From: a virus
Lineage: Duplodnaviria > Heunggongvirae > Uroviricota > Caudoviricetes
Reading direction: 5' to 3' (one strand)
DNA length: 64,000 nt
Virus record (IMG/VR): IMGVR_UViG_2861079508_000001
The notes beneath the pieces were generated by a model. It was not told the DNA's origin. It was given only the letters and a program-made list of their open reading frames with translations, and did no database searches. Below, in pieces: positions 1,888-61,815 of the stretch (position 1 is its first letter; every line of letters begins with the position of its first letter). A program made the translations under genes and the position numbers.

Positions 1888-2222
1888 TACCCAACCTCCT
1901 TGCAGTCATCGAAAAGGTAGCTGTCGTTCTTCGCGTGAACGCCGTATACATCACCCGATTTGTTGTAAACGAACCTATCTTTACCTACGCCAGATAGTTC
2001 GCCGTTACGTTTAGTGAGAAACGGGGAAGACAGGACGCGATCATCGCGTACCACATAAAACTGTTCGCCACGGTCCACAACCATCGCGCCGTAATTAGCT
2101 TTAACGGCGTTGCGGATCAGGCCGTTTTTCGCTTCGACCACAAACATTTCGCACTCATAGACATGTGTGTCCGCAAAGACGGGGAGAGTGAGCAGCGCCA
2201 GTACCAGGGCTGTTTTCTTCAT
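1887..2222 (-). CDS. secreted hypothetical protein with N-terminal signal peptide
   Basis: N-terminus MKKTALVLALLTLPVFA is signal-peptide-like; 111 aa. Confidence 0.5.
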   Translation of the reverse strand: MKKTALVLALLTLPVFADTHVYECEMFVVEAKNGLIRNAVKANYGAMVVDRGEQFYVVRDDRVLSSPFLTKRNGELSGVGKDRFVYNKSGDVYGVHAKNDSYLFDDCKEVG

Positions 2223-18249: not shown

Positions 18250-20613
18250 TCAAATATCGAAGCTCGTTATGTCGGCATTTATTGCCATTGCTTCGGCATA
18301 AGTGCGACGCTCACCATCAGCACAAAGTAGGCGTGCTGCTTTATGGATTTTTCTCGTAGAACCATCATCCAGTGACACTGTCACCCAGCCTTCCTCCGCT
18401 CGCTTAATGAAGTCGCCGCCAATGGATTTCATTTTCTCCATATCTTTTTTCCCGATCGCTTTCCTGACCGAGTCTGCTTCCGCCATTGAGAACCCCGCCA
18501 AGATTCGCGTAGCAGCCATGATCTGTTCCTGATAAATCAGAACTCCGTTTGTGTCGCGAGAGATGTCGTCCAGCATTGGGTGTAAGGAATGTGGGGCCAT
18601 GAAGCCTTTGGCCACGGACACATAATCGTCCAACATGCCGGATTGAATCGGGCCAGGTCGGAAGAGCGCAGTTGTAGCGACGACCGTTTTAAAGCTCATT
18701 GGCTCAATTCCACCACCTAAATCTTTAAGCAGCTTGCGCATTGGGCCTGATTCAAGCTGGAATACGCCCTGTGTATACCCTGCAGCAAAACCATCCAGCA
18801 CCTTGCGATCTTCAAGAGAAATGGCATCAAGATTGATATCTTCACCTGTGTTCTCTTTTATGTAGCGTTTTGCACTATCGAGCAAATCGAGAGTTGCCAG
18901 GCCAAGCACGTCCAGCTTAATTAGGCCCATAGCCTCGCAGTAACGCTTGTCAAATGCGATACAACGCGCGTCACCACGGCGTTCAACCGGTGTACGTTCT
19001 GTCAGAGGAACACCTGCTACGATCATCCCTGCCGCATGTCTACCAAAGCCACGCATAAGGCTTTGTAACTTGCAGGCTGCATTGAATGCATCAGGATATT
19101 TTGTTGCGTATTTGTCGAGACTTGCCAGTTGTTCGCGCAGCTCTTCCAATGGAAGGCTATCATCCTCGACGTTCTTCAGTTCTTTTGATACCGCCATATC
19201 TGCGGACTCCACACCATAAATACGAGCGGTGTCACGTAGTGCAGAGGCTGCGCCCAGGTAGGTGAAGTTCGGAATGCCTGCAACGTAATCTTCGCCGTAG
19301 CGTTCATTCAGATACTCGATCACCTCATGGCGACGTGCCTGGCTGAAGTCCAAGTCCGCATCCGGCAAGTCGAGACGCTCAGGGTTGATGAAACGCTCAA
19401 ACAGAAGACCGTGACGGATTGGGTCGACGTTGGTTATGCCTATGCACCACGCCACCAGAGAACCGGCAGAGGAACCACGACCAGGCCCGACAGGAATGCC
19501 AGTTTCACGGCTGTGATTCATCAGATCGCGTACCATCAGGAAGTAACCACAAAATCCCAGGCGAGTAAGCGTGTCCATTTCGTACTTAAGTCGCTCAACA
19601 TAAACCCTGTTCTCAGAAGCAGGTGGTGTGTATCCAAACTCTTTTGTGGTAAGACGTTTACGCAGCCCTGCAACAGCCAGTTTCATCAGCGTTGCAGGTT
19701 CGTCGTCTGCCATCTTGGGCAGTGCTGGTGGCAATTCATGCCAGCGCCATGTGCAGGCATCGATAATGGAGTCCTGCGTTGTTGAGGCCATTGCAGCTGT
19801 TACCGGCACATCCATGCGAACGGAGAAGGCTTTAAGCGCCTCAAGGAGATGGCGACGACCATTGATGGCGTTATCTCGCTGGTGGGGGATACGCAGACGA
19901 TGCGGCTGGTCGATTTTTATGTTGTTCGTAACCATGTGCGCAATGTCTTTAATGTCTGCATCGTCGATCGATTCGTAATAAGCGGGATAGAACGCTACTG
20001 GCTCTATTTTCAGTGCGCTGGCGACTTTCATCGCCCGGACGTTAATCTGGTCGTAGAATGGGGTAGGGTGCGGATAAACCACACTATAGAAGTTGTCTTT
20101 TCCACCCGCTGTAATCAGTGTGCTTATGATTTTTGCAAAATCGTTGCGTTGGAACACGCTACCGATGTCGGAAGTAAGCAGGATGATGTTGCCTTTGGCA
20201 TATGTAGAAACCAACTGTTCGAGCGAGAGACGCGGTACAAAGTAGAACTGTTCTCGTGTGTTGGCCGCCGTCATTAGTTCGCAGATGTCGCGATATCCTT
20301 TCTCATTTTTAATTAGAGCGGTAAACGAGTAGTTACGTCCTCGCTCTAATGATTCCATACATCTCATAGATTCTTTAGCAAGTTTAGCCCGGTGCTCGTA
20401 TGTGGGATCATCAACAATGTTTAGTTTCACACCACAAATAACCGCCATGTCGTCACCAGCGGCACGTTGTAGTGGAATAACGCTCGCAATATTCATGCTA
20501 TCTGCTGAAATTACAGCGGTGTAGCCAGCTTCTCTGGCAATCTTCACCGCGTTTTCTGCTTTTAGAGCCGACTCCCCAAGTGAGAAGTCAGTTCGAACCA
20601 TCAGTGCCTTCAT
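18250..20613 (-). CDS. dnaE: DNA polymerase III alpha (DnaE) N-terminal fragment (PHP domain plus polymerase core)
   Basis: 787 aa; GRGSSAGSLVAWCIGITNVDPIRHGLLFERFINPERLDLPDADLDF and FQLES...LFRPGP...YQEQIM match the DnaE core; last ~45 aa have no DnaE counterpart. Confidence 0.85.
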   Translation of the reverse strand: MKALMVRTDFSLGESALKAENAVKIAREAGYTAVISADSMNIASVIPLQRAAGDDMAVICGVKLNIVDDPTYEHRAKLAKESMRCMESLERGRNYSFTALIKNEKGYRDICELMTAANTREQFYFVPRLSLEQLVSTYAKGNIILLTSDIGSVFQRNDFAKIISTLITAGGKDNFYSVVYPHPTPFYDQINVRAMKVASALKIEPVAFYPAYYESIDDADIKDIAHMVTNNIKIDQPHRLRIPHQRDNAINGRRHLLEALKAFSVRMDVPVTAAMASTTQDSIIDACTWRWHELPPALPKMADDEPATLMKLAVAGLRKRLTTKEFGYTPPASENRVYVERLKYEMDTLTRLGFCGYFLMVRDLMNHSRETGIPVGPGRGSSAGSLVAWCIGITNVDPIRHGLLFERFINPERLDLPDADLDFSQARRHEVIEYLNERYGEDYVAGIPNFTYLGAASALRDTARIYGVESADMAVSKELKNVEDDSLPLEELREQLASLDKYATKYPDAFNAACKLQSLMRGFGRHAAGMIVAGVPLTERTPVERRGDARCIAFDKRYCEAMGLIKLDVLGLATLDLLDSAKRYIKENTGEDINLDAISLEDRKVLDGFAAGYTQGVFQLESGPMRKLLKDLGGGIEPMSFKTVVATTALFRPGPIQSGMLDDYVSVAKGFMAPHSLHPMLDDISRDTNGVLIYQEQIMAATRILAGFSMAEADSVRKAIGKKDMEKMKSIGGDFIKRAEEGWVTVSLDDGSTRKIHKAARLLCADGERRTYAEAMAINADITSFDI

Positions 20614-26280: not shown

Positions 26281-26530
26281 ATGACAATCACCGAGTTACG
26301 CCGATGCACTGTATAAGTAAACAGTATATTAGGCATAGATTCTTATAGGATCAAGAGTAAAAGTAACTCATTTTCAGTAATGATTCCATACATAGTAGGT
26401 ATGGAATCATTGTAGGCCTTTTTTATAAAATCTGTGATTCTTCTCAGGATAAATTATCTAAACTAAAAATTGTGTTTTGTGTTGGCATCTGCTTGAATAG
26501 ACGCATGTTTATTCAGATATGGAATAATCA

Positions 26531-27298: not shown

Positions 27299-27541
27299 TA
27301 GTGTACTCACCAGCGCCGCAAATTCCGTATACCCCCCAATATGCTCTCCATGTATGAATATCTGAGGTATGGTATCCACTGGTTTACCAACCTGGTTGCT
27401 CAACGTTTCTTTGTTGATCCCCGCAGATGTAATATCTATATACTCATAATCACCGTAGCCATGTCCCTTTAGTTGCTTCGCCAACTCGACCGCACGTTTG
27501 CAGTATGAGCAGTTATCTCGTCCGTAGATAGTGATCGTCAT
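27296..27541 (-). CDS. glutaredoxin-like protein (NrdC/GrxA-type)
   Basis: 81 aa; CSYC active site near N-terminus; thioredoxin-fold size. Confidence 0.7.
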   Translation of the reverse strand: MTITIYGRDNCSYCKRAVELAKQLKGHGYGDYEYIDITSAGINKETLSNQVGKPVDTIPQIFIHGEHIGGYTEFAALVSTL

Positions 27542-27608
27542 AACTTAACAAATACCTTTATAAATATTGATTCGAACATATCAGACTATACTACAAACAG
27601 ATTTTTTT

Positions 27609-27629
27609 GATAAGTATGTAGTAACTTAT
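27609..27629. promoter_or_regulatory. motif B upstream of the AT-rich orphan gene (plus orientation)
   Basis: GATAAGTATGTAGTAACTTAT; AAACAATTG half-site of motif A at 27643-27651. Confidence 0.4.
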
Positions 27630-27714
27630 TGATTGACTAGTAAACAATTGAAGTGATTACGACAATAGATTACAGTAAGGATTGCCTTGAAATGTACATT
27701 TTATAGAGGTTTTA

Positions 27715-28623
27715 ATGATTGGTAAGTTGTCTGATTCTTTGATTGAAAATAAATACAACGAATTTAGAGAAGAAATATCTTTACTTTTTGACTATTTAAA
27801 TCAGATAAATGATACAACAAAGAAAAATATAAAACGTCTTCTTAAAGAAGTGGAGTATGCACAAAATCCAGATACTATTATTAATATTAATGAAACTATT
27901 AAGATTAAGTGTGGCACAACGTTAGCTCGCCATTTATGTTCAAACCCATATACAGGTTCAACATTAGAGATAGGTAACAGCGCCATTGATTTAGAAGAAA
28001 AGATAAGATTGTGTAATACTTTGAAAAATAAACAATATCAGTGGGTTATTACTGAAGCCTATGAGTTACTGGAAGACTATATTGAGGCAATATATGTCTA
28101 TACTGTATGTGTTCGAAATGATTTATGGTCCTCAAGTGATTTTGGTAAGGTTGAAGATGATGAAATTGGGAAAAGGGAAGTTTATTACAGATTATTAAAA
28201 GCAAAAAGTAACCCATCGAAAAAAATAACTAAAATTTTCAGAAATAAAATACCTGGCTTCAAAGAGATAGAAACAAACAACAAGATTGGCAAAAACTATC
28301 GCTTTAACATCAAGCTAATTGAACTACTAAGACATACAATAGTACACAATAGTGGACGATTCAATGATACAGAAAAATTTATAAATAAGGTTTTAGATGA
28401 ATCTGAAATAAACGGTAAGAAAAGAGTTATTGGAGAAAGAGCTGTTAGAAGTTACATTACTAAAGTGCAAGAAGATGATATTGTGATGCTCTTAGAAAGA
28501 CCATCTGAAATTTTAGGTTCTTTTGGTGGGTATTTTAACAGAGCAAAATTTTTACTAAGTGATATTTTAGAATACTCACTAATCATTAAAGAAGAACTAA
28601 AATCATATCTAGGCAATCATTAA
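27715..28623 (+). CDS. AT-rich orphan protein with HEPN-like Rx4H motif; candidate Abi-like defence/anti-defence
   Basis: 302 aa; coding region visibly AT-rich versus flanks; motif LLRHTIVHNSGRF (R-x4-H); own upstream motif and own terminator; function is inference. Confidence 0.5.
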   Translation: MIGKLSDSLIENKYNEFREEISLLFDYLNQINDTTKKNIKRLLKEVEYAQNPDTIININETIKIKCGTTLARHLCSNPYTGSTLEIGNSAIDLEEKIRLCNTLKNKQYQWVITEAYELLEDYIEAIYVYTVCVRNDLWSSSDFGKVEDDEIGKREVYYRLLKAKSNPSKKITKIFRNKIPGFKEIETNNKIGKNYRFNIKLIELLRHTIVHNSGRFNDTEKFINKVLDESEINGKKRVIGERAVRSYITKVQEDDIVMLLERPSEILGSFGGYFNRAKFLLSDILEYSLIIKEELKSYLGNH

Positions 28624-28630
28624 CAAAAAA

Positions 28631-28658
28631 GGGGCCGAAGCCCCTTTGGATTTTGCGC
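28631..28658 (+). terminator. intrinsic terminator GGGGCCGAAGCCCC plus TTTGGATTTT
   Basis: read directly, 8 bp after the 27715..28623 stop. Confidence 0.65.
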
Positions 28659-28720
28659 TTAAAAAAGTGTTGCTAGGATGTTAGCAAGCTATGGTTAAGA
28701 ACGTCTGCCGTAATTGTCTA

Positions 28721-28799
28721 TCACAGCGTTGAGCGGTCTGGTTTATGTTAGCGGAGTCTTAATCGAGTTGATTAAAAGGCCAAACCGCTCAACGCTGTG
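28721..28799. repeat. long hairpin H0 (arms CACAGCGTTGAGCGGTCTGG / CCAAACCGCTCAACGCTGTG, ~38-nt loop)
   Basis: inverted repeat read directly, just 3' of tRNA-Ser on the minus strand. Confidence 0.5.
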
Positions 28800-28801
28800 T
28801 C

Positions 28802-28888
28802 TGGCGGAGAGTAATGGAATCGAACCATCATCGCTTGCGCAATGGGACGGTTTTCAAGACCGCTTGAGCACCATGCTCCCTACTCTCC
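28802..28888 (-). tRNA. tRNA-Ser (anticodon UGA), class II long variable arm
   Basis: folded by hand from the reverse complement: acceptor GGAGAGT/ACTCTCC, anticodon loop CTTGAAA, T-loop TTCGATT, 3' CCA. Confidence 0.8.
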
Positions 28889-28987
28889 AGCTATTGTGAT
28901 GGTCGGTGCTGAACTCCGACACAGGGTTGTAGCAAGCCCCGCAAAGCGCGCACTACTGTAGTTGCGGCACATCAGCCTGTGCATTCA

Positions 28988-29070
28988 TCACAACGGTAAG
29001 ATCACTACCTTTCGACCAGTCATTGTGCACATGAACGACGATTAACCGTAATGATCTTATCGTTGTGTTG
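28988..29070. repeat. long hairpin H1 (arms CACAACGGTAAGATCA / TGATCTTATCGTTGTG)
   Basis: inverted repeat read directly between tRNA-Ser and tRNA-Thr. Confidence 0.5.
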
Positions 29071-29115
29071 TGAAGCCAGATGCTTATCTTCTGGTTGCTT
29101 CAAAGAGCTGCACTT

Positions 29116-29208
29116 CCTCACAACGGTAAGAGCACTGGTCTGACTCTATCGATTTACGGCCTTGTGGGTCAGTATCGCCGATTCGCCCAATGCTCTTACC
29201 TGTTGTGT
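29116..29208. repeat. long hairpin H2 (arms CACAACGGTAAGAGCA / TGCTCTTACCTGTTGTG), paralogue of H1
   Basis: inverted repeat read directly; ends at tRNA-Thr. Confidence 0.5.
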
Positions 29209-29284
29209 TGGTGCCGGTTAACGGACTTGAACCGCTGGCCATTCGCTTACAAAGCGACTGCTCTACCAACTGAGCTAAACCGGC
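29209..29284 (-). tRNA. tRNA-Thr (anticodon UGU)
   Basis: hand fold: acceptor GCCGGTT/AACCGGC, D-arm GCTCAGTTGGTAGAGC, anticodon loop TTTGTAA, T-loop TTCAAGT, CCA. Confidence 0.8.
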
Positions 29285-29288
29285 AATT

Positions 29289-29375
29289 TGGTGGGGAGTG
29301 ATGGAGTCGAACCACCCGAGTCGCCATGACAGTAGATTTACAGTCTACACCGCTACCTCTACGGACTAACTCCCC
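29289..29375 (-). tRNA. tRNA-Tyr (anticodon GUA), class II
   Basis: hand fold: anticodon arm CAGACTGTAAATCTG-like (GACTGTAAATC), long variable arm, T-loop TTCGACT, CCA. Confidence 0.85.
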
Positions 29376-29380
29376 TAAAT

Positions 29381-29455
29381 TGGCGATGGTGGGTGGATTC
29401 GAACCACCGACCAGTTGGTTAACAGCCAACTGCTCTACCGCTGAGCTACACCATC
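29381..29455 (-). tRNA. tRNA-Asn (anticodon GUU)
   Basis: hand fold: perfect 7-bp acceptor GATGGTG/CACCATC, anticodon loop CTGTTAA, T-loop TTCGAAT, CCA. Confidence 0.85.
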
Positions 29456-29717
29456 AATTCAGCACTGCCAGTATTTATTACTCAACAGTGCCAATCGCGA
29501 CGGTTTAGTTTCTGCCAGGAAACGCACCGCTACTTGCACTTTTCGTTAGTGCCAGACGCTTTCGACTTCGCTCAATAGTAGAAGGCAAAATCTTTAAGTA
29601 GATGATGTTTCTGAGGACAGCACCTACTTTGTAATTTATACAATGTGATGTATGGAATCATTTGTTGTGAAAACAGGCACCAATGGCAACAGTGGTTAAA
29701 CCTACACAACAATCCCG

Positions 29718-29846
29718 TCTTCACAACGTTGAGGCCACTACTCCGATTGAATGTTTGCCCAACATGTTACATATCAACGCTCGCCGGTATCTCTGTGAAT
29801 AGAACCTTAGAATTGATAAAAATGTAATGGCCTCAACGTTGTGTGC
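29718..29846. repeat. long hairpin H3 (arms CACAACGTTGAGGCCAC / ATGGCCTCAACGTTGTG, ~93-nt loop)
   Basis: inverted repeat read directly in the non-coding region. Confidence 0.45.
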
Positions 29847-30004
29847 TGGCTAACCATACCAGCCGGGCTACGTCGCCGCTTTTTAACCCAGTATAAACGA
29901 CATAATTGAACAAAATGACGTAACAGGATGGGCGGTCAGTGGCTAAGAATCCGGGAGTCATATGGAGTTGAAAATATACCAACCGCCCATTCTGTTACTT
30001 CATC

Positions 30005-30028
30005 GGAGGGAACATGAATGTTCCCTCC
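30005..30028. other. perfect 10-bp stem hairpin GGAGGGAACA-tgaa-TGTTCCCTCC
   Basis: read directly; contains a GGAGG and ATG. Confidence 0.45.
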
Positions 30029-30202
30029 TGCGTTCTGCAATCACACTCGCTCAGTGTGTCCCATTTCGGTAACGAGGCTGGAAACTGACCTCGCTGGTGT
30101 TTGGCTTATTAGGCTACTGCCAGATAGACTTCTTCGTTTGCACTTGTATTTAAGTTCAAACAGTCGCGTCTCAACGAAAACAAAGTCATCTTATACATAA
30201 AA

Positions 30203-30225
30203 GATAGGTAAGTAAATACTTATCG
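30203..30225. promoter_or_regulatory. motif B at the edge of the 770-bp non-coding region
   Basis: GATAGGTAAGTAAATACTTATCG. Confidence 0.35.
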
Positions 30226-30233
30226 AAATGTTT

Positions 30234-30524
30234 TTATTCGGTTGTGACTTTTTTGATCAAGGCCACTCTACGATCAGGTGTTCTTGTGATGGTGGCAGTG
30301 AATCGTTTCGCTTGGATAGTAATGGTTTCGTTCTCATTAAGTTGCCCGTAGCGAGTTTCCACAAGGGTACCAAGACGCCACAGGCCATCATCAATACGTT
30401 TATGGCTAGCAAATTTAATCAGCAGCAGTTTTACGACTAACTGCCCTACGTAAAAAGCGAATGCGACTCCGGCTGCCATAAAATAGGTTGCCAACCACCA
30501 TTCCCAAGAAGTTAAATTGCTCAT
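30234..30524 (-). CDS. small membrane protein (96 aa)
   Basis: N-terminal hydrophobic helix WWLATYFMAAGVAFAFYVGQLVV. Confidence 0.4.
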   Translation of the reverse strand: MSNLTSWEWWLATYFMAAGVAFAFYVGQLVVKLLLIKFASHKRIDDGLWRLGTLVETRYGQLNENETITIQAKRFTATITRTPDRRVALIKKVTTE

Positions 30525-30669
30525 TTTCTCACCTTTGTTTCATGAACTACCCGATACACACGCTTTCCGATGCACAGTGTTTTGGTTTTAAGTTCCTGCT
30601 TAATTAAGTCACGACAGATGCCGAAGCCGATAAGGAAGCCACCCATAAAAGCTAATGAGATGTATGGAA

Positions 30670-30885
30670 TCATTTTAACACTCCTGATTCTACTAATTGC
30701 TGTAGCAATACTTTCCCTTTATCAGTTAACTGGTAGTTGGCCGAACACTTCGTTTCAGAAACGTTTGCAACCAACCCTAAACGCTCTAACTTAGCTCGCG
30801 TTTTAGGCTTCCAGTACTCAGGGAACTCCGGCCACTTACTGATTTCATGAAGCGTTTCCTTCTCCCGTTTACTTAATACGATCAT
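30670..30885 (-). CDS. hypothetical protein (71 aa)
   Basis: ORF only. Confidence 0.35.
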   Translation of the reverse strand: MIVLSKREKETLHEISKWPEFPEYWKPKTRAKLERLGLVANVSETKCSANYQLTDKGKVLLQQLVESGVLK

Positions 30886-31044
30886 CCTTAATCTCCTTCA
30901 CGGTGTTGGTTATTTCTACAATGCGATAAATGCGACCGCGTCTTTCTATAACACCGTTTTTAATGTAGTCATTAATGCAACTGGACATCACCACAATACC
31001 GATGAAAAAACCAACTGCTAAAAATGCAATCATCCAGCCGAGCA

Positions 31045-32367
31045 TCATTCTTTATCTCCGATTCGATCTTCTGTATCGCGTAAGCAACGCGGCCATTTCA
31101 GTCGTGGGTGGCGTAAGCTGCCATCAGGTGTTTTCTCGTGACAATGAACCTCGACAATACGACCACGGTACTTCTCTTTGTTGTTCCAGATCTCGTCCAG
31201 ATATTTATGCTTAATGCCGCTCGCACGAACGATGACGCCGTTTTCAAGACGAATAACAATTTTTCCAAGCGTGTTGGCAAAACCAGAGTCCGGGTCGCCC
31301 GGCTCAAAATCGATAATTTCACCATCTTCTGAATCTTCGTCTTTTAACTTCCACCAGCTGCGGGTACGTTTAAATTCGTAAACAGAGTTCGGATCTTTGC
31401 CCATCTCCCCTTCTTCGTTATCGTCCAGGCGTTTCATGAAGCGTTCGATGAAGTCTTCGTGGCTATGGATGATGTAGAACGGATGCAGGTGAATGTCTTG
31501 TGCGTAGCCTTCACTGCGATCGTTTTTGAACAACGCCACGAGCATAGCCAGGCGCTCTTTCAGCTTCATACCTGTCTTTGCATACTCTTTGGATTTAGCC
31601 TGTGCTCGCCATTCCGGTAGGAAGAAGTCGAAAACATGATAAATAGCGCCAATTGCCTGCACGTTCTTTTTGCGCAATGCAGATACGGACTGGTTAAATG
31701 AACCGGCTGTGCCTTCACCATCGAAGAAGATGTGTTTGTGGCCTGAAAGTTTGCCTAATTCGAGCATGGCTGGCTTTAGGTGATCGAGAGACGTGATTGG
31801 ATTACCAGTACGAGAAAGGAAGTTAACCTCTTCTTCGTCAACAATAACCTCGCAAATTACTCGCAAACCATCGAGCTTAAGGCTGCCAATCATCGGCCAT
31901 TTTGCTTTAGGGTTTGGCTTGAAGGGGTATTTGTCGCCTTTTTCTTTATACGGTGACGCCAGCTGCACCTCGAATTTCGGAATGGGATTTTCAAAAACCT
32001 TGTTACATAGGCTAATCCCAACGCCAGCTTTCGGATCTTTTAAGAGGAAACGACGGAAGACGTCCTGCCCATCGGCGCACATTGACGCCACGATAGACTC
32101 AACAGCAACTATTGCTGCGTTCCCCGTCAGCTCGCGAGAGGCCAGCTTATTCAGTATATCAATGGCTTTTTCGTCACTTGGGACGGACTCACTAAGCGGC
32201 TCTGCCACTTTGTATTTTTTTACCCCAAAACGGATGAAAGGGTTGAGCATCAATGAAACCATGCTTTGCTCGAAGTCATCCATGTTGGCCAATGCCTCTT
32301 TTTTTGCATTGGTTCCCATAGCTTTCATTTCGTCCAGCTTATGCTTAAGTGCGATCAACTTTTTCAT
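31045..32367 (-). CDS. ATP-dependent DNA ligase
   Basis: 440 aa; adenylation motif I SLKLDGLR (KxDG). Confidence 0.8.
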   Translation of the reverse strand: MKKLIALKHKLDEMKAMGTNAKKEALANMDDFEQSMVSLMLNPFIRFGVKKYKVAEPLSESVPSDEKAIDILNKLASRELTGNAAIVAVESIVASMCADGQDVFRRFLLKDPKAGVGISLCNKVFENPIPKFEVQLASPYKEKGDKYPFKPNPKAKWPMIGSLKLDGLRVICEVIVDEEEVNFLSRTGNPITSLDHLKPAMLELGKLSGHKHIFFDGEGTAGSFNQSVSALRKKNVQAIGAIYHVFDFFLPEWRAQAKSKEYAKTGMKLKERLAMLVALFKNDRSEGYAQDIHLHPFYIIHSHEDFIERFMKRLDDNEEGEMGKDPNSVYEFKRTRSWWKLKDEDSEDGEIIDFEPGDPDSGFANTLGKIVIRLENGVIVRASGIKHKYLDEIWNNKEKYRGRIVEVHCHEKTPDGSLRHPRLKWPRCLRDTEDRIGDKE

Positions 32368-60601: not shown

Positions 60602-60928
60602 ATGACTAAAAATACTCGTTTTTCCCCCGAAGTCCGTCAGAGGGCGATTCGTATGGTTCTGGAAAGTCAGGGCGAATATGACTCACAGTGGGCGGCAATT
60701 TGTTCCATTGCCCCAAAGATTGGCTGTACACCGGAGACTCTGCGTGTCTGGGTACGCCAGCATGAGCGGGATACCGGAGGCGGTGATGGCGGGCTCACCA
60801 CCGCTGAACGTCAGCGTCTGAAAGAGCTGGAACGTGAAAATCGTGAACTGCGCCGCAGTAACGATATCCTTCGCCAGGCTTCCGCTTATTTTGCGAAGGC
60901 GGAGTTCGACCGCCTCTGGAAAAAATGA
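60602..60928 (+). CDS. IS629 OrfA
   Basis: 108 aa [23 protein letters not shown]...; A6 run at 60920-60925 at orfA/orfB overlap. Confidence 0.9.
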
Positions 60929-61815
60929 TGCCACTGCTGGATAAGCTGCGTGAGCAGTACGGGGTCGGACCGCTATGCAGCGAACTGCATATTGCCCCGT
61001 CAACGTATTACCACTGTCAGCAACAGCGACATCATCCGGATAAACGCAGTGCCCGTGCGCAGCGCGATGACTGGCTGAAGAAAGAGATACAGCGCGTATA
61101 CGATGAAAATCATCAGGTGTACGGTGTGCGTAAAGTCTGGCGTCAGTTGTTACGGGAAGGTATCAGAGTGGCCAGATGCACTGTGGCACGTCTCATGGCG
61201 GTTATGGGACTTGCCGGTGTTCTCCGGGGTAAAAAGGTCCGTACGACCATCAGCCGGAAAGCCGTTGCCGCAGGCGACCGCGTAAACCGTCAGTTCGTGG
61301 CAGAACGACCTGACCAGCTGTGGGTGGCTGATTTTACTTACGTCAGCACATGGCGGGGCTTCGTCTATGTGGCGTTCATCATTGATGTGTTTGCCGGATA
61401 CATCGTGGGGTGGCGGGTCTCATCGTCTATGGAAACGACATTCGTGCTGGATGCTCTGGAGCAGGCGTTATGGGCCCGTCAACCGTCCGGCACAGTCCAT
61501 CACAGTGATAAAGGTTCTCAGTATGTATCGCTGGCCTACACACAGCGGCTTAAGGAAGCCGGATTACTGGCATCAACAGGAAGTACTGGTGACTCGTATG
61601 ACAACGCGATGGCGGAGAGCATCAATGGCCTTTACAAAGCGGAGGTAATACACCGTAAGAGCTGGAAAAACCGGACAGAAGTGGAGCTGGCCACACTCAC
61701 GTGGGTGGACTGGTATAACAATCGACGATTGCTGGAAAGGCTGGGCCATATCCCACCGGCAGAAGCAGAAAAAGCTTATTATGCTTCCATCGGAAACGAT
61801 GATCTGGCAGCCTGA
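60925..61815 (+). CDS. IS629 OrfB (DDE transposase), -1 frame relative to OrfA
   Basis: 296 aa with rve core (WVADFTYV...HHSDKGSQY...YDNAMAES). Confidence 0.9.

Follow-up and report, generated by a model that had tools for sequence, protein, structure and literature searches.

What is encoded at 29456-30233 in the SSU5-like phage-plasmid of IMG/VR record IMGVR_UViG_2861079508_000001, between a transfer RNA (tRNA) gene for Asn and an open reading frame (ORF) of 96 amino acids (aa)? The 64,000-nucleotide (nt) stretch of this record that was analysed, here called the window, finds its best matches in Escherichia phages CMS-2020a and Cyrano and then in Salmonella phage SSU5. The initial annotation had described the gap as devoid of convincing ORFs, and this holds, as the gap is free of protein genes and the ORFs inside it have no PHROG match. 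It had also proposed that the gap might be a replication origin, a packaging site or a non-coding RNA locus, and of these only the last survives. The minus strand of the gap encodes a structured RNA that runs in the same direction as the neighbouring tRNA genes, and this RNA belongs to a previously undescribed and very widespread family of phage relatives of transfer-messenger RNA (tmRNA) that have no tRNA-like domain. The family is recognised by the first ~180 nt of the RNA (about 30181-30005, minus strand), which we call the 5′ module. Feature coordinates are collected in Table 1.

Folded as a whole, the minus strand of the gap reaches -253.3 kcal/mol, compared with -202.0 +/- 4.9 kcal/mol for shuffled sequences (z = -10.4). 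RNAalifold analysis of 13 diverged SSU5-like sequences found compensatory changes at 18 pairs, and the helices kept in that analysis are the palindrome near the end of the 5′ module, 29915-30003, two at 29845-29905, and 29722-29843. G.U pairs are frequent in the minus-strand helices, and on the plus strand they become C.A mismatches; this strand asymmetry, the covarying helices and the sense orientation together indicate an RNA rather than a DNA element. A replication origin, a packaging site or another protein-binding region could look like this gap, which is large, non-coding and rich in inverted repeats and has one operator-like palindrome. Nevertheless, the gap has no tandem repeats or iterons, no AT-rich stretch and no local skew switch (its GC content is 43-50%), its G.U-rich helices are strand-asymmetric, and at least six phage groups carry the module along the direction of transcription at sites that bear no relation to one another, its genome position differing widely among Felix O1-like, Vi01-like, N4-like, P1-like, lambdoid and SSU5-like phages. 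A DNA-level element is thus almost certainly not the explanation.

Tag frame, folds and 5′ arm

The core of the module in the window reads, on the minus strand, ...AAAUACAAGU GCA AAC GAA GAA GUC UAU CUG GCA GUA GCC UAA UAA... and would encode the tag ANEEVYLAVA, where the E. coli SsrA tag is ANDENYALAA. Tag-anchored pattern scans of IMG/VR, with a pattern that did not demand a stop, gave 126 loci, 125 of which have a stop immediately after the tag. An arm-anchored scan that imposed nothing beyond codon 3 yielded 39 distinct ORFs, every genuine one of exactly 10 codons and a stop, and these fall into two tag classes, ...(Y/F)LAVA and ANDDxxxxAA. Within a peptide class the differences are mostly synonymous (CTG/TTG, GTT/GTC/GTA, GCG/GCT/GCA/GCC, TAT/TAC, GAG/GAA), and the stop occurs as TAA, TAG or TGA; locus L213, for example, preserves the peptide ANDNTFLAVA despite GCA>GCT and AAC>AAT changes. 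The 10-codon tag frame is under peptide-level selection. Tags of 10 codons are also present in the P1-like phage RCS47 (L340, ANDDLMMVAA), in the N4-like phage Bp4 (L341, ANDDVVLMAA) and, in a host-like form, in L372 (ANDNYALAAA).

This frame has the resume codon, short ORF and in-frame stop of the messenger RNA (mRNA)-like domain of tmRNA and, like that domain, no initiation codon; there is no in-frame ATG, GTG or TTG upstream of the tag in Citrobacter phage Mijalis or in HK620. The frame-setting upstream sequence is present as well. Position -4 is A in 114/114 distinct sequences and position -5 is U in 102 and C in 12 of them, which matches the rule that tmRNA frame selection requires A86/U85 (PMC2481249). 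ARAGORN recognised both the resume consensus and the tag in the Mijalis homolog.

It is highly improbable that the gap instead holds one or more ordinary small protein-coding genes or a leader peptide. Mechanical ORFs of 29-60 aa are indeed present, and many members of the family have an ATG, replaced by GTG in the window, that overlaps with their resume codon. None of the gap ORFs, including the four of 49-60 aa, matches a PHROG family, however, and no coding sequence is annotated in the equivalent region of Cyrano or SSU5. The overlapping frame is not conserved; in SSU5 it starts with CTG and the tag frame is conserved instead, and among relatives it changes non-conservatively (MQTKKCIWP, xQTKIRTWQ, MQTIMFFWQ). 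A second apparent start motif, MIPYI, leads into unrelated short frames in relatives.

Downstream of the tag the module continues in the order found in tmRNA, with stop codons inside a helix 5 equivalent and then pseudoknots, and both stems of two pseudoknots show compensatory changes. In a covariance-model alignment of 57 sequences, 33 pairs from the stop-codon helix, the two pseudoknots and the hairpin stems were examined; 91.5% were paired, compared with 35-48% when the partners were slid, and both-side changes occupied 124 cells against 35.7 +/- 4.9 in shuffles (0/500 shuffles reached 124). The two helices of the helix 5 equivalent are 100% and 91% paired; because its outer stem is invariant, that stem is uninformative either way. 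Pseudoknot a spans 30059-30093 and its loop pairing occurs as CCAG:CUGG, CCGA:UCGG, CCAA:UUGG, UUCCA:UGGGA and CUCCA:UGGAG. The second stem of pseudoknot b is ~3 bp long in the SSU5 type (weak in the window) and longer elsewhere, with loop-to-downstream pairs such as GCCCAC:GUGGGC, GCCCUGA:UCAGGGC and GGCGGGAG:CUCCCGCC in relatives. RNAalifold also joined the arm to the 3′ end by a long-range CGCG:CGCG helix, which we dismissed as a 4-bp palindrome match.

The module closes with the perfect palindrome that the initial annotation had singled out. It is exact at 30005-30028, with a 10-bp stem and a 4-nt loop; taken as arms of 11 nt each (30005-30015 and 30018-30028), 2 nt apart, it is 100% complementary. 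It is more than a chance palindrome, because relatives keep the helix through compensatory changes (GGAGGGAACAU/AUGUUCCCUCC in the window, AUAGGGCAUG/CAUGCCCUAU in SSU5 and GGUAGGGCA.../...UGCCCUUACC in others). This hairpin is homologous to the A:A′ helix GGUAAGAGCAUU...AGUGCUCUUUCC that closes the module in other phages, where it is usually flanked by CACAAC/GUUGUG; in the window the insert is reduced to the 4-nt loop.

Table 1. Coordinates of features in and around the 29456-30233 gap of the window
Feature	Position	Strand	Description
Motif B	30203-30224	not assigned	Inverted repeat GATAgGTA-N6-TACTTATC overlapping the -35 box
Promoter-like element	30188-30216	minus	-35 TTTACT (30216-30211), 17-nt spacer, -10 TAAGAT (30193-30188)
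Antisense block 1, GUUUUCGUUG	30172-30181	minus	Predicted complementary to tmRNA nt ~96-105; RNAduplex
Antisense block 2, GCGACUGUUU	30158-30167	minus	Predicted complementary to tmRNA nt ~81-91 (AAAUAGUC followed by GC); RNAduplex
Tag reading frame	30106-30141	minus	GCA resume codon (30141-30139), 10 codons, UAA UAA (30111-30106)
Helix 5 equivalent	30094-30123	minus	CUGG...CCAG outer stem, GC/GC inner stem, stop codons in loop
Pseudoknot a, stem	CGAGG 30093-30089 with CCUCG 30077-30073	minus	Pairs vary UA/CG, GC/AU
Pseudoknot a, second stem	Loop UUCCA with UGGGA 30063-30059	minus	Pairs vary CG/UA, GC/AU/CG, AU/GC
Pseudoknot b	30027-30058	minus	Hairpin CACAC-UGAGCG-GUGUG (30058-30042) and downstream strand; CG/UA/GC covariation
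Palindrome H3, closing hairpin of module	30005-30028	minus	RNAalifold columns 162-166 with 202-206 show compensatory changes
Long hairpin, 22-bp arms	29915-29936 with 29982-30003	minus	RNAalifold columns 207-300; compensatory 218/289, 219/288, 229-233
Small helix, 7 bp	29868-29874 with 29899-29905	minus	RNAalifold columns 310-349
Small helix, 6-bp stem and 7-nt loop	29845-29863	minus	RNAalifold columns 354-372
CACAACG...CGUUGUG hairpin, 20-bp stem (A-X-A′ module)	29722-29843	minus	RNAalifold columns 383-391 with 506-514 covary
Conserved 16-mer AAUGAUUCCAUACAUC	29647-29662	minus	Nearly invariant in 13 SSU5-like representatives; flanks diverge
96-aa ORF	30234-30524	minus	phrog_4507, E 8e-58; next real gene, upstream of the gap on the minus strand
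tRNA-Asn	29381-29455	minus	ARAGORN, Rfam; first of the downstream tRNAs
tRNA-Tyr	29289-29375	minus	ARAGORN
tRNA-Thr	29209-29284	minus	ARAGORN
tRNA-Ser	28802-28888	minus	ARAGORN

Two short blocks ahead of the tag, GUUUUCG(U) and GCGA(C/U)U, are the sole parts of the arm that stay the same in every group, and both are complementary to host tmRNA, for which the E. coli K-12 SsrA sequence was used as the target. Block 1 is the reverse complement of host tag codons 3-5 (GAC GAA AAC; nt 97-103), extending to nt 96-107. Block 2 is the reverse complement of AGUC followed by GC (nt 86-91), extending over the A-run to nt 80, so that its target takes in U85 and A86 together with the resume codon's first two bases. 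Among 87 distinct arms gathered without constraining the arm, 85 have a GUUUUCG core that is fully Watson-Crick to tmRNA 97-103, and the substitutions in block 2 mostly preserve pairing with the unchanging host base, by wobble (A to G opposite U, C to U opposite G, G/A opposite U). The blocks are collinear with their target, with a spacing of 14 nt versus 13 nt, for which a composition-matched simulation gives p about 8e-5. Across 120 tmRNAs of Enterobacterales, Pasteurellales and Aeromonas the host sequence AAUAGUCGCAAACGACGAAAACUA scarcely varies.

Duplex diagrams place the arms of all families on tmRNA nt 54-108 or 80-107, and those of the lambdoid, Carvaje, Vi01 and RCS47 types extend into pseudoknot 1 (nt 54-79) with 37-40 bp. 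Most lambdoid and Carvaje-like arms have predicted duplex energies of -39 to -44 kcal/mol, compared with -28 +/- 3 kcal/mol for shuffles (z about -3.5 to -6), and two weaker arms of these types reach about -36 kcal/mol (z -1.9 to -2.4). Alignment to the tmRNA reverse complement by Watson-Crick pairs only gave z values of 4-10 (p <= 0.003) for 9/13 arms tested, including Felix O1-like, lambdoid, Carvaje-like, Vi01-like and RCS47 arms. Sense-strand similarity to tmRNA was not significant in any arm tested, and a candidate sense homology of the arm to tmRNA nt 12-40 (D-loop/P2) was rejected, the local alignments being not significant. Pairing in cis with the RNA's own tag cannot be what holds the arm constant, because its own codons 3-5 vary freely between groups (GAAGAAGUC, GAUGAGCAA, GAUAAUGUU, GACAAUCAG). 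In the window the predicted duplex consists of two 10-bp blocks separated by a small internal loop, covers tmRNA nt 81-105 and has an energy of -26.3 kcal/mol. RNAduplex energy has little power for the short SSU5-type arm, for which shuffles reach -21 to -28 kcal/mol. Antisense pairing is thus strongly predicted in the lambdoid, Felix O1-like, Vi01 and RCS47 relatives and is marginal to modest for the window's own arm, which we assign to the same role because it is homologous to the significant arms and has the same invariant nucleotides.

Distribution and relation to known RNAs

A sensitive BLAST search with the gap matched 317 phage records; Felix O1-like phages, Klebsiella phage Carvaje and HK620 share ~110-150 nt of it (30039-30193), and in every case the matching DNA carries no annotation. 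A search that started from a lambdoid-type sequence reached 763 phage records, including Vi01-like, N4-like (Bp4) and P1-like (RCS47) phages. The window's version is found in 772 plasmid records (Klebsiella, Escherichia, Enterobacter, Yersinia including Y. pestis, Salmonella and others), and the HK620 type in 135/5426 complete E. coli genomes. A covariance model built from the family gives exactly one match per locus, at 110-211 bits; in RCS47 and Bp4 the stem sequences are quite different and the layout is the same. A loose anchor pattern, ACACCAG...TGATTAATAA, gave mostly chance matches and added three useful variants. Annotation of the family as RNA is essentially absent, most matches lying over no feature and a few over hypothetical-protein calls.

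The commonest neighbours of the module are tRNA genes, and in unrelated phages it is always oriented along the adjacent tRNAs or along the lambdoid late operon or leader. In Mijalis it lies within the tRNA array and on the same strand, in Carvaje it adjoins tRNA-Ser, and in the Felix O1-like phages the next tRNA begins 13 nt past the closing hairpin. In HK620 and in a prophage of Shiga toxin-producing E. coli (STEC) it is flanked by the Q antiterminator/pR′ and the holin and follows the direction of late transcription. We note in passing that the feature-table tRNA coordinates of the Mijalis record (L003, KY654690.2) are 58 nt off from the tRNAs in its sequence.

The module is not a tmRNA, because the conserved unit lacks a tRNA-like domain; the acceptor stem with G3.U70, the T-arm and the 3′ CCA are all absent. 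An ARAGORN tmRNA search of the window found none, and in 29456-30233 Rfam gave only sub-threshold tmRNA hits over the tag region. Across the window and 14 homolog loci Rfam detected only tRNAs, the ALIL element and sub-threshold tmRNA, with no family at the gathering threshold for the module; the hits on the loci are to four tmRNA models, the best at 21.8-29.8 bits against thresholds of 47-84. In Mijalis the standard tmRNA model aligns only at 51-311 of its 374 positions, the model interior. The unit has its own boundaries, with a promoter-like element abutting GUUUUCG in three independent groups (SSU5-like, Felix O1-like and L010-like) and a hairpin at its end. ARAGORN did call permuted tmRNAs in Mijalis and L107 (2/126 loci), and we take the tRNA-like part of these calls to be artefactual, the tRNA domains used in Mijalis lying 300-570 nt away and being cut off from the tag by three genuine tRNA genes. 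The Mijalis segment used by ARAGORN as the 3′ tRNA domain (~2150-2201, minus strand) has a T-arm, a 3′ acceptor strand, GCCA, 4 nt and a complementary 5′ acceptor GAAGGGU, and so resembles a circularly permuted tRNA-like gene. There is likewise no acceptor piece just upstream to pair with the 5′ end of the coding piece, as in two-piece tmRNA, and the SSU5-like loci contain no acceptor piece at all. The module therefore fails on a defining feature of tmRNA, and it most likely acts through the tmRNA pathway.

Comparison with known systems makes this position clearer. With one-piece tmRNA the phage RNA shares an A-rich single-stranded leader with A at -4, a GCA resume codon without a start codon, a tag of ~10 codons that opens with A-N-D/E and closes with small hydrophobic residues, a helix around the stop codons with H-type pseudoknots after it, and the weak Rfam hits. 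It differs in being encoded by phages and phage-plasmids, in having a 5′ end antisense to tmRNA, in a tag that ends LAVA (or VAA/MAA) rather than LAA, and in lacking the acceptor stem, T-arm, CCA and ring-closing P2 helix. With no acceptor stem, T-arm or CCA it should be neither chargeable nor able to bind SmpB and EF-Tu as tmRNA does. The two-piece tmRNAs of alpha- and beta-proteobacteria and cyanobacteria likewise divide tRNA-like and mRNA-like functions between two base-paired RNAs, and both ARAGORN and the permuted Rfam models respond to the phage RNA. Their two pieces, however, are products of a single gene joined by the acceptor and P2 helices, whereas the proposed partner of the phage RNA is the host's complete tmRNA, paired at its coding region.

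Among phages, an exhaustive survey from 2014 that covered 543 bacterial viruses reported ssrA in mycobacteriophages alone, and it mentioned, from beyond its RefSeq set, the full tmRNA of Bacillus phage G and a tRNA-like-domain-only form in DS6A that was suggested to be a trans-translation inhibitor (PMC4131195). The DS6A molecule is, like the family described here, a phage-encoded tmRNA derivative, but it keeps the tRNA-like domain and lacks the coding part, so that the two are mirror images. Prophage anti-small RNAs such as AgvB and AsxR of enterohaemorrhagic E. coli are encoded by mobile elements and carry a short 5′ seed complementary to a conserved host RNA. The phage RNA shares the mobile-element origin and such a seed, and differs in its target, which would be tmRNA rather than an mRNA or an Hfq-dependent small RNA, and in the fusion of its arm to a replacement coding module. 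GOLLD, ROOL and T4 species 1 and 2 are large structured non-coding phage RNAs beside tRNA genes, as this RNA is, but their architecture and sequence have nothing in common with it, and no Rfam GOLLD or ROOL model matches 27500-31500 at E values up to 10. A full-text literature search on phage tmRNA-like, antisense or mimic RNAs found no description of the family.

Possible modes of action

A frame that is selected for its peptide and has neither a start codon nor a tRNA-like domain needs a route onto the ribosome, and the antisense arm suggests one. It is quite possible, in our judgement, that the phage RNA attaches to host SsrA, covers the template for the host tag and presents a template of its own. 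More tentatively, the outcome could be a bimolecular hijack of trans-translation, in which host SsrA-SmpB would still rescue ribosomes and the nascent chains would receive a phage-chosen tag (e.g., ...YLAVA). The RNA would be made at, or processed to, a 5′ end at GUUUUCG, and would base-pair with host SsrA in the 5′ half of its mRNA-like region, which is single-stranded, with lambdoid-type members also invading pseudoknot 1. The duplex would hide the host's frame-setting nucleotides U85/A86 and its resume codon, and at the same time would tether the phage leader, resume codon and tag template to the host alanyl-tRNA-like domain and SmpB. Rescued ribosomes would then append AN(D/E)xx(Y/F)LAVA or ANDDxxxxAA instead of ANDENYALAA. 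Different adaptors and proteases would see proteins tagged in this way and their fate would be altered, rescue without ClpXP degradation or titration of an adaptor being plausible outcomes; the phage tags presumably leave the SspB-binding positions (AANDxxY) intact and alter the end bound by ClpX (LAA). The module would share a transcript with the hairpins and tRNAs downstream of it, and processing would then separate them.

The geometry of the predicted duplex can be compared with that of tmRNA itself, in which the resume codon lies 12 nt after pseudoknot 1 and the tag template can be changed (PMC2481249). The distance from the duplex end to the phage resume codon is 10-11 unpaired nt in the lambdoid, RCS47 and Bp4 types and 16-18 nt in the SSU5 and Felix types.

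Several observations weigh against docking, and plain antisense inhibition of tmRNA and a decoy function are both serious alternatives to it. We know of no system in which a tag template is supplied in trans to a complete tmRNA. The duplex energy of the window arm is equalled by 12/150 shuffles, its z value is about 0 when a longer arm is used, and Watson-Crick-only alignment of this arm finds just the 8-mer. Predicted accessibility of the arm in the free RNA is mixed (probability of being unpaired 0.2-0.7), part of the arm is able to pair with the resume region of the same RNA, and full-length RNAcofold prediction with the phage RNA and tmRNA gives scattered, uninterpretable pairs. Salmonella phages keep GUUUUCG even though the Salmonella tag, which we take to be ANDETYALAA (GAA ACC), would create one mismatch in block 1. 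Lastly, a search for arms adapted to Pasteurellaceae tmRNA (TTGTTCG) gave chance matches only, and no phage-host covariation was found because the target hardly varies in Enterobacterales.

The same complementarity would equally suit a pure antisense inhibitor or sponge that blocks or destabilises host tmRNA across the resume site, the tag frame being an untranslated leftover; phage proteins would then be spared tagging and degradation, or ribosome rescue would be altered. Some BLAST matches (RCS47, Bp4, phiMAM1) conserve mainly the arm, which fits such a role. We nevertheless think it unlikely, consequences included, since the tag frame behaves as translated in every subfamily, RCS47 and Bp4 among them: it always has 10 codons and a stop, synonymous changes and an invariant A at -4, where a leftover would decay. 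Rather improbable, too, is a tmRNA-derived RNA that acts without pairing to host tmRNA, be it a decoy for factors such as ribosomal protein S1, SmpB's second site or RNase R, or the coding piece of a split tmRNA whose tRNA-like piece comes from a phage tRNA-like module or an adjacent tRNA. This would give meaning to the tRNA genes that so often adjoin the element, to the tRNA-like T-arm minihelices beside it in L009, L041, L023 and L046, and to the permuted tmRNA that ARAGORN assembles in Mijalis. It leaves unexplained, however, why the invariant nucleotides of the arm match host tmRNA. The SSU5-like, Felix O1-like and L010-like units have no T-arm modules and a promoter abuts their GUUUUCG, and the Mijalis assembly suffers from the distances and rarity described above.

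Finally, the locus might be transcript architecture only, a set of processing, stability or punctuation hairpins (RNase III/E/P sites) of a tRNA operon, in which the likeness to tmRNA has no function. The A-X-A′ hairpins are repeated between tRNAs and shuffled between loci, and the sole terminator-like site follows the last tRNA, as this would have it, but the 10-codon frame, the A at -4, two covarying pseudoknots and the antisense blocks are all left unaccounted for, and the module also occurs in lambdoid late leaders with no tRNA nearby. We regard architecture alone as very unlikely.

If the docking model is true, it describes a new viral route to interfere with ribosome rescue and protein quality control. 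tmRNA has been viewed as a single self-contained molecule or as two halves of one gene, and earlier reports of phage tmRNAs concern complete copies or the tRNA-like-domain-only form in mycobacteriophages. Hundreds of sequenced phages contain the family, among them Felix O1-like, Vi01-like, N4-like and P1-like phages, lambdoid STEC prophages and the SSU5/pHCM2/pMT1-type phage-plasmids of E. coli, Klebsiella, Salmonella and Yersinia. A lambda-immP22 hybrid and Mu depend on tmRNA, and the reason for such dependence becomes directly testable. Phage tRNA clusters are accompanied by RNAs that lack an explanation; one of these would gain a concrete function, and a natural design for re-targeting ssrA tags in trans is suggested. 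Should docking prove incorrect, annotation and an Rfam entry would still be warranted, as the family at present goes unseen in about 1,600 public records.

Promoter region, downstream hairpins and neighbouring genes

We can only infer a transcription start near 30181, because the promoter-like element upstream of it is too weak for a consensus promoter scan, which made no call at 30188-30216 (8/12 matches). Diverged SSU5-like loci share the -35/17 nt/-10 layout (TTTACC-17-TATAGT; TTTACT-17-TATGAT), and the equivalent place is occupied by a perfect TTGACA-17-TATAGT in the Felix O1-like loci and by TTGACA-17-TAGATT in the L010 type. The motif B site recorded by the initial annotation is indeed present. 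SSU5-like relatives preserve the palindromic form of its repeat (TAAGTAtttACTTA vs TAGGTAtttACCTA), and it may be an operator-like site for a phage-plasmid regulator. TAAGTAnnTACTTA-like palindromic sites occur at seven places in the window (15716, 22093, 30209, 33724, 38988, 49504 and 56408), or eight matches counting both strands against 0.56 expected, and that at 30209 overlies the -35 box of the promoter-like element; the seven are probably operators or promoter elements of such a regulator.

The SSU5-type RNA runs ~550 nt past the palindrome, with conserved hairpins and a conserved 16-mer, and in Klebsiella relatives the first ~400 nt are conserved. The two small helices at 29845-29905 show mostly invariant pairs or one-sided changes. 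The hairpin at 29722-29843 has paralogs at 28722-28799, 28986-29070 and 29119-29205 (minus strand), interleaved with the tRNA genes, and the four have 20-bp stems, CACA(A/G)CG...CG(C/U)UGUG, that covary between copies; Cyrano lacks both hairpins that separate tRNA-Ser and tRNA-Thr in the window. These four A-X-A′ hairpins are of the module type that closes the tmRNA-like unit in other phages, and a role in processing or punctuating the tRNA transcript is our default guess. On the minus strand a terminator-like site occurs only at 28647-28628, beyond the last tRNA, and the tRNAs Asn, Tyr, Thr and Ser and the gap RNA are probably on one transcript. In some lambdoid hairpin modules a T-arm (GGGUUCGAAUCCC) lies just before the 3′ stem arm (L009 5283-5297, L041 3112-3126 and the upstream modules of L023 and L046); the resulting tRNA-like minihelices have an extended acceptor-like stem but lack an encoded CCA, and ARAGORN calls none of them as a tRNA.

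The 16-mer contains one of four copies in the window of the 15-mer AATGATTCCATACAT, at 20348-20362 (+), 26379-26393 (+), 29647-29662 (-) and 30659-30674 (-). The copy at 30673 starts a real gene of 50 aa (phrog_6302, MIPYI...); because the three others open frames of 6, 11 and 29 aa without a ribosome-binding site, the 15-mer looks like a nucleic-acid motif rather than a coding start. Pairing of the 16-mer with tmRNA 317-330 was considered and is not significant (p = 0.086).

Just past the terminator of the tRNA unit lies an ORF of 302 aa (27715-28623, plus strand), on the strand opposite to all its neighbours and in a low-GC island (28-30% vs ~43%), which looks like an acquired cargo gene. 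Towards the other end of the window an ALIL pseudoknot (Rfam RF01497, 120 bits; 60883-60999, plus strand), the programmed-frameshift signal of an IS3-family transposase, marks an insertion sequence near the window end.

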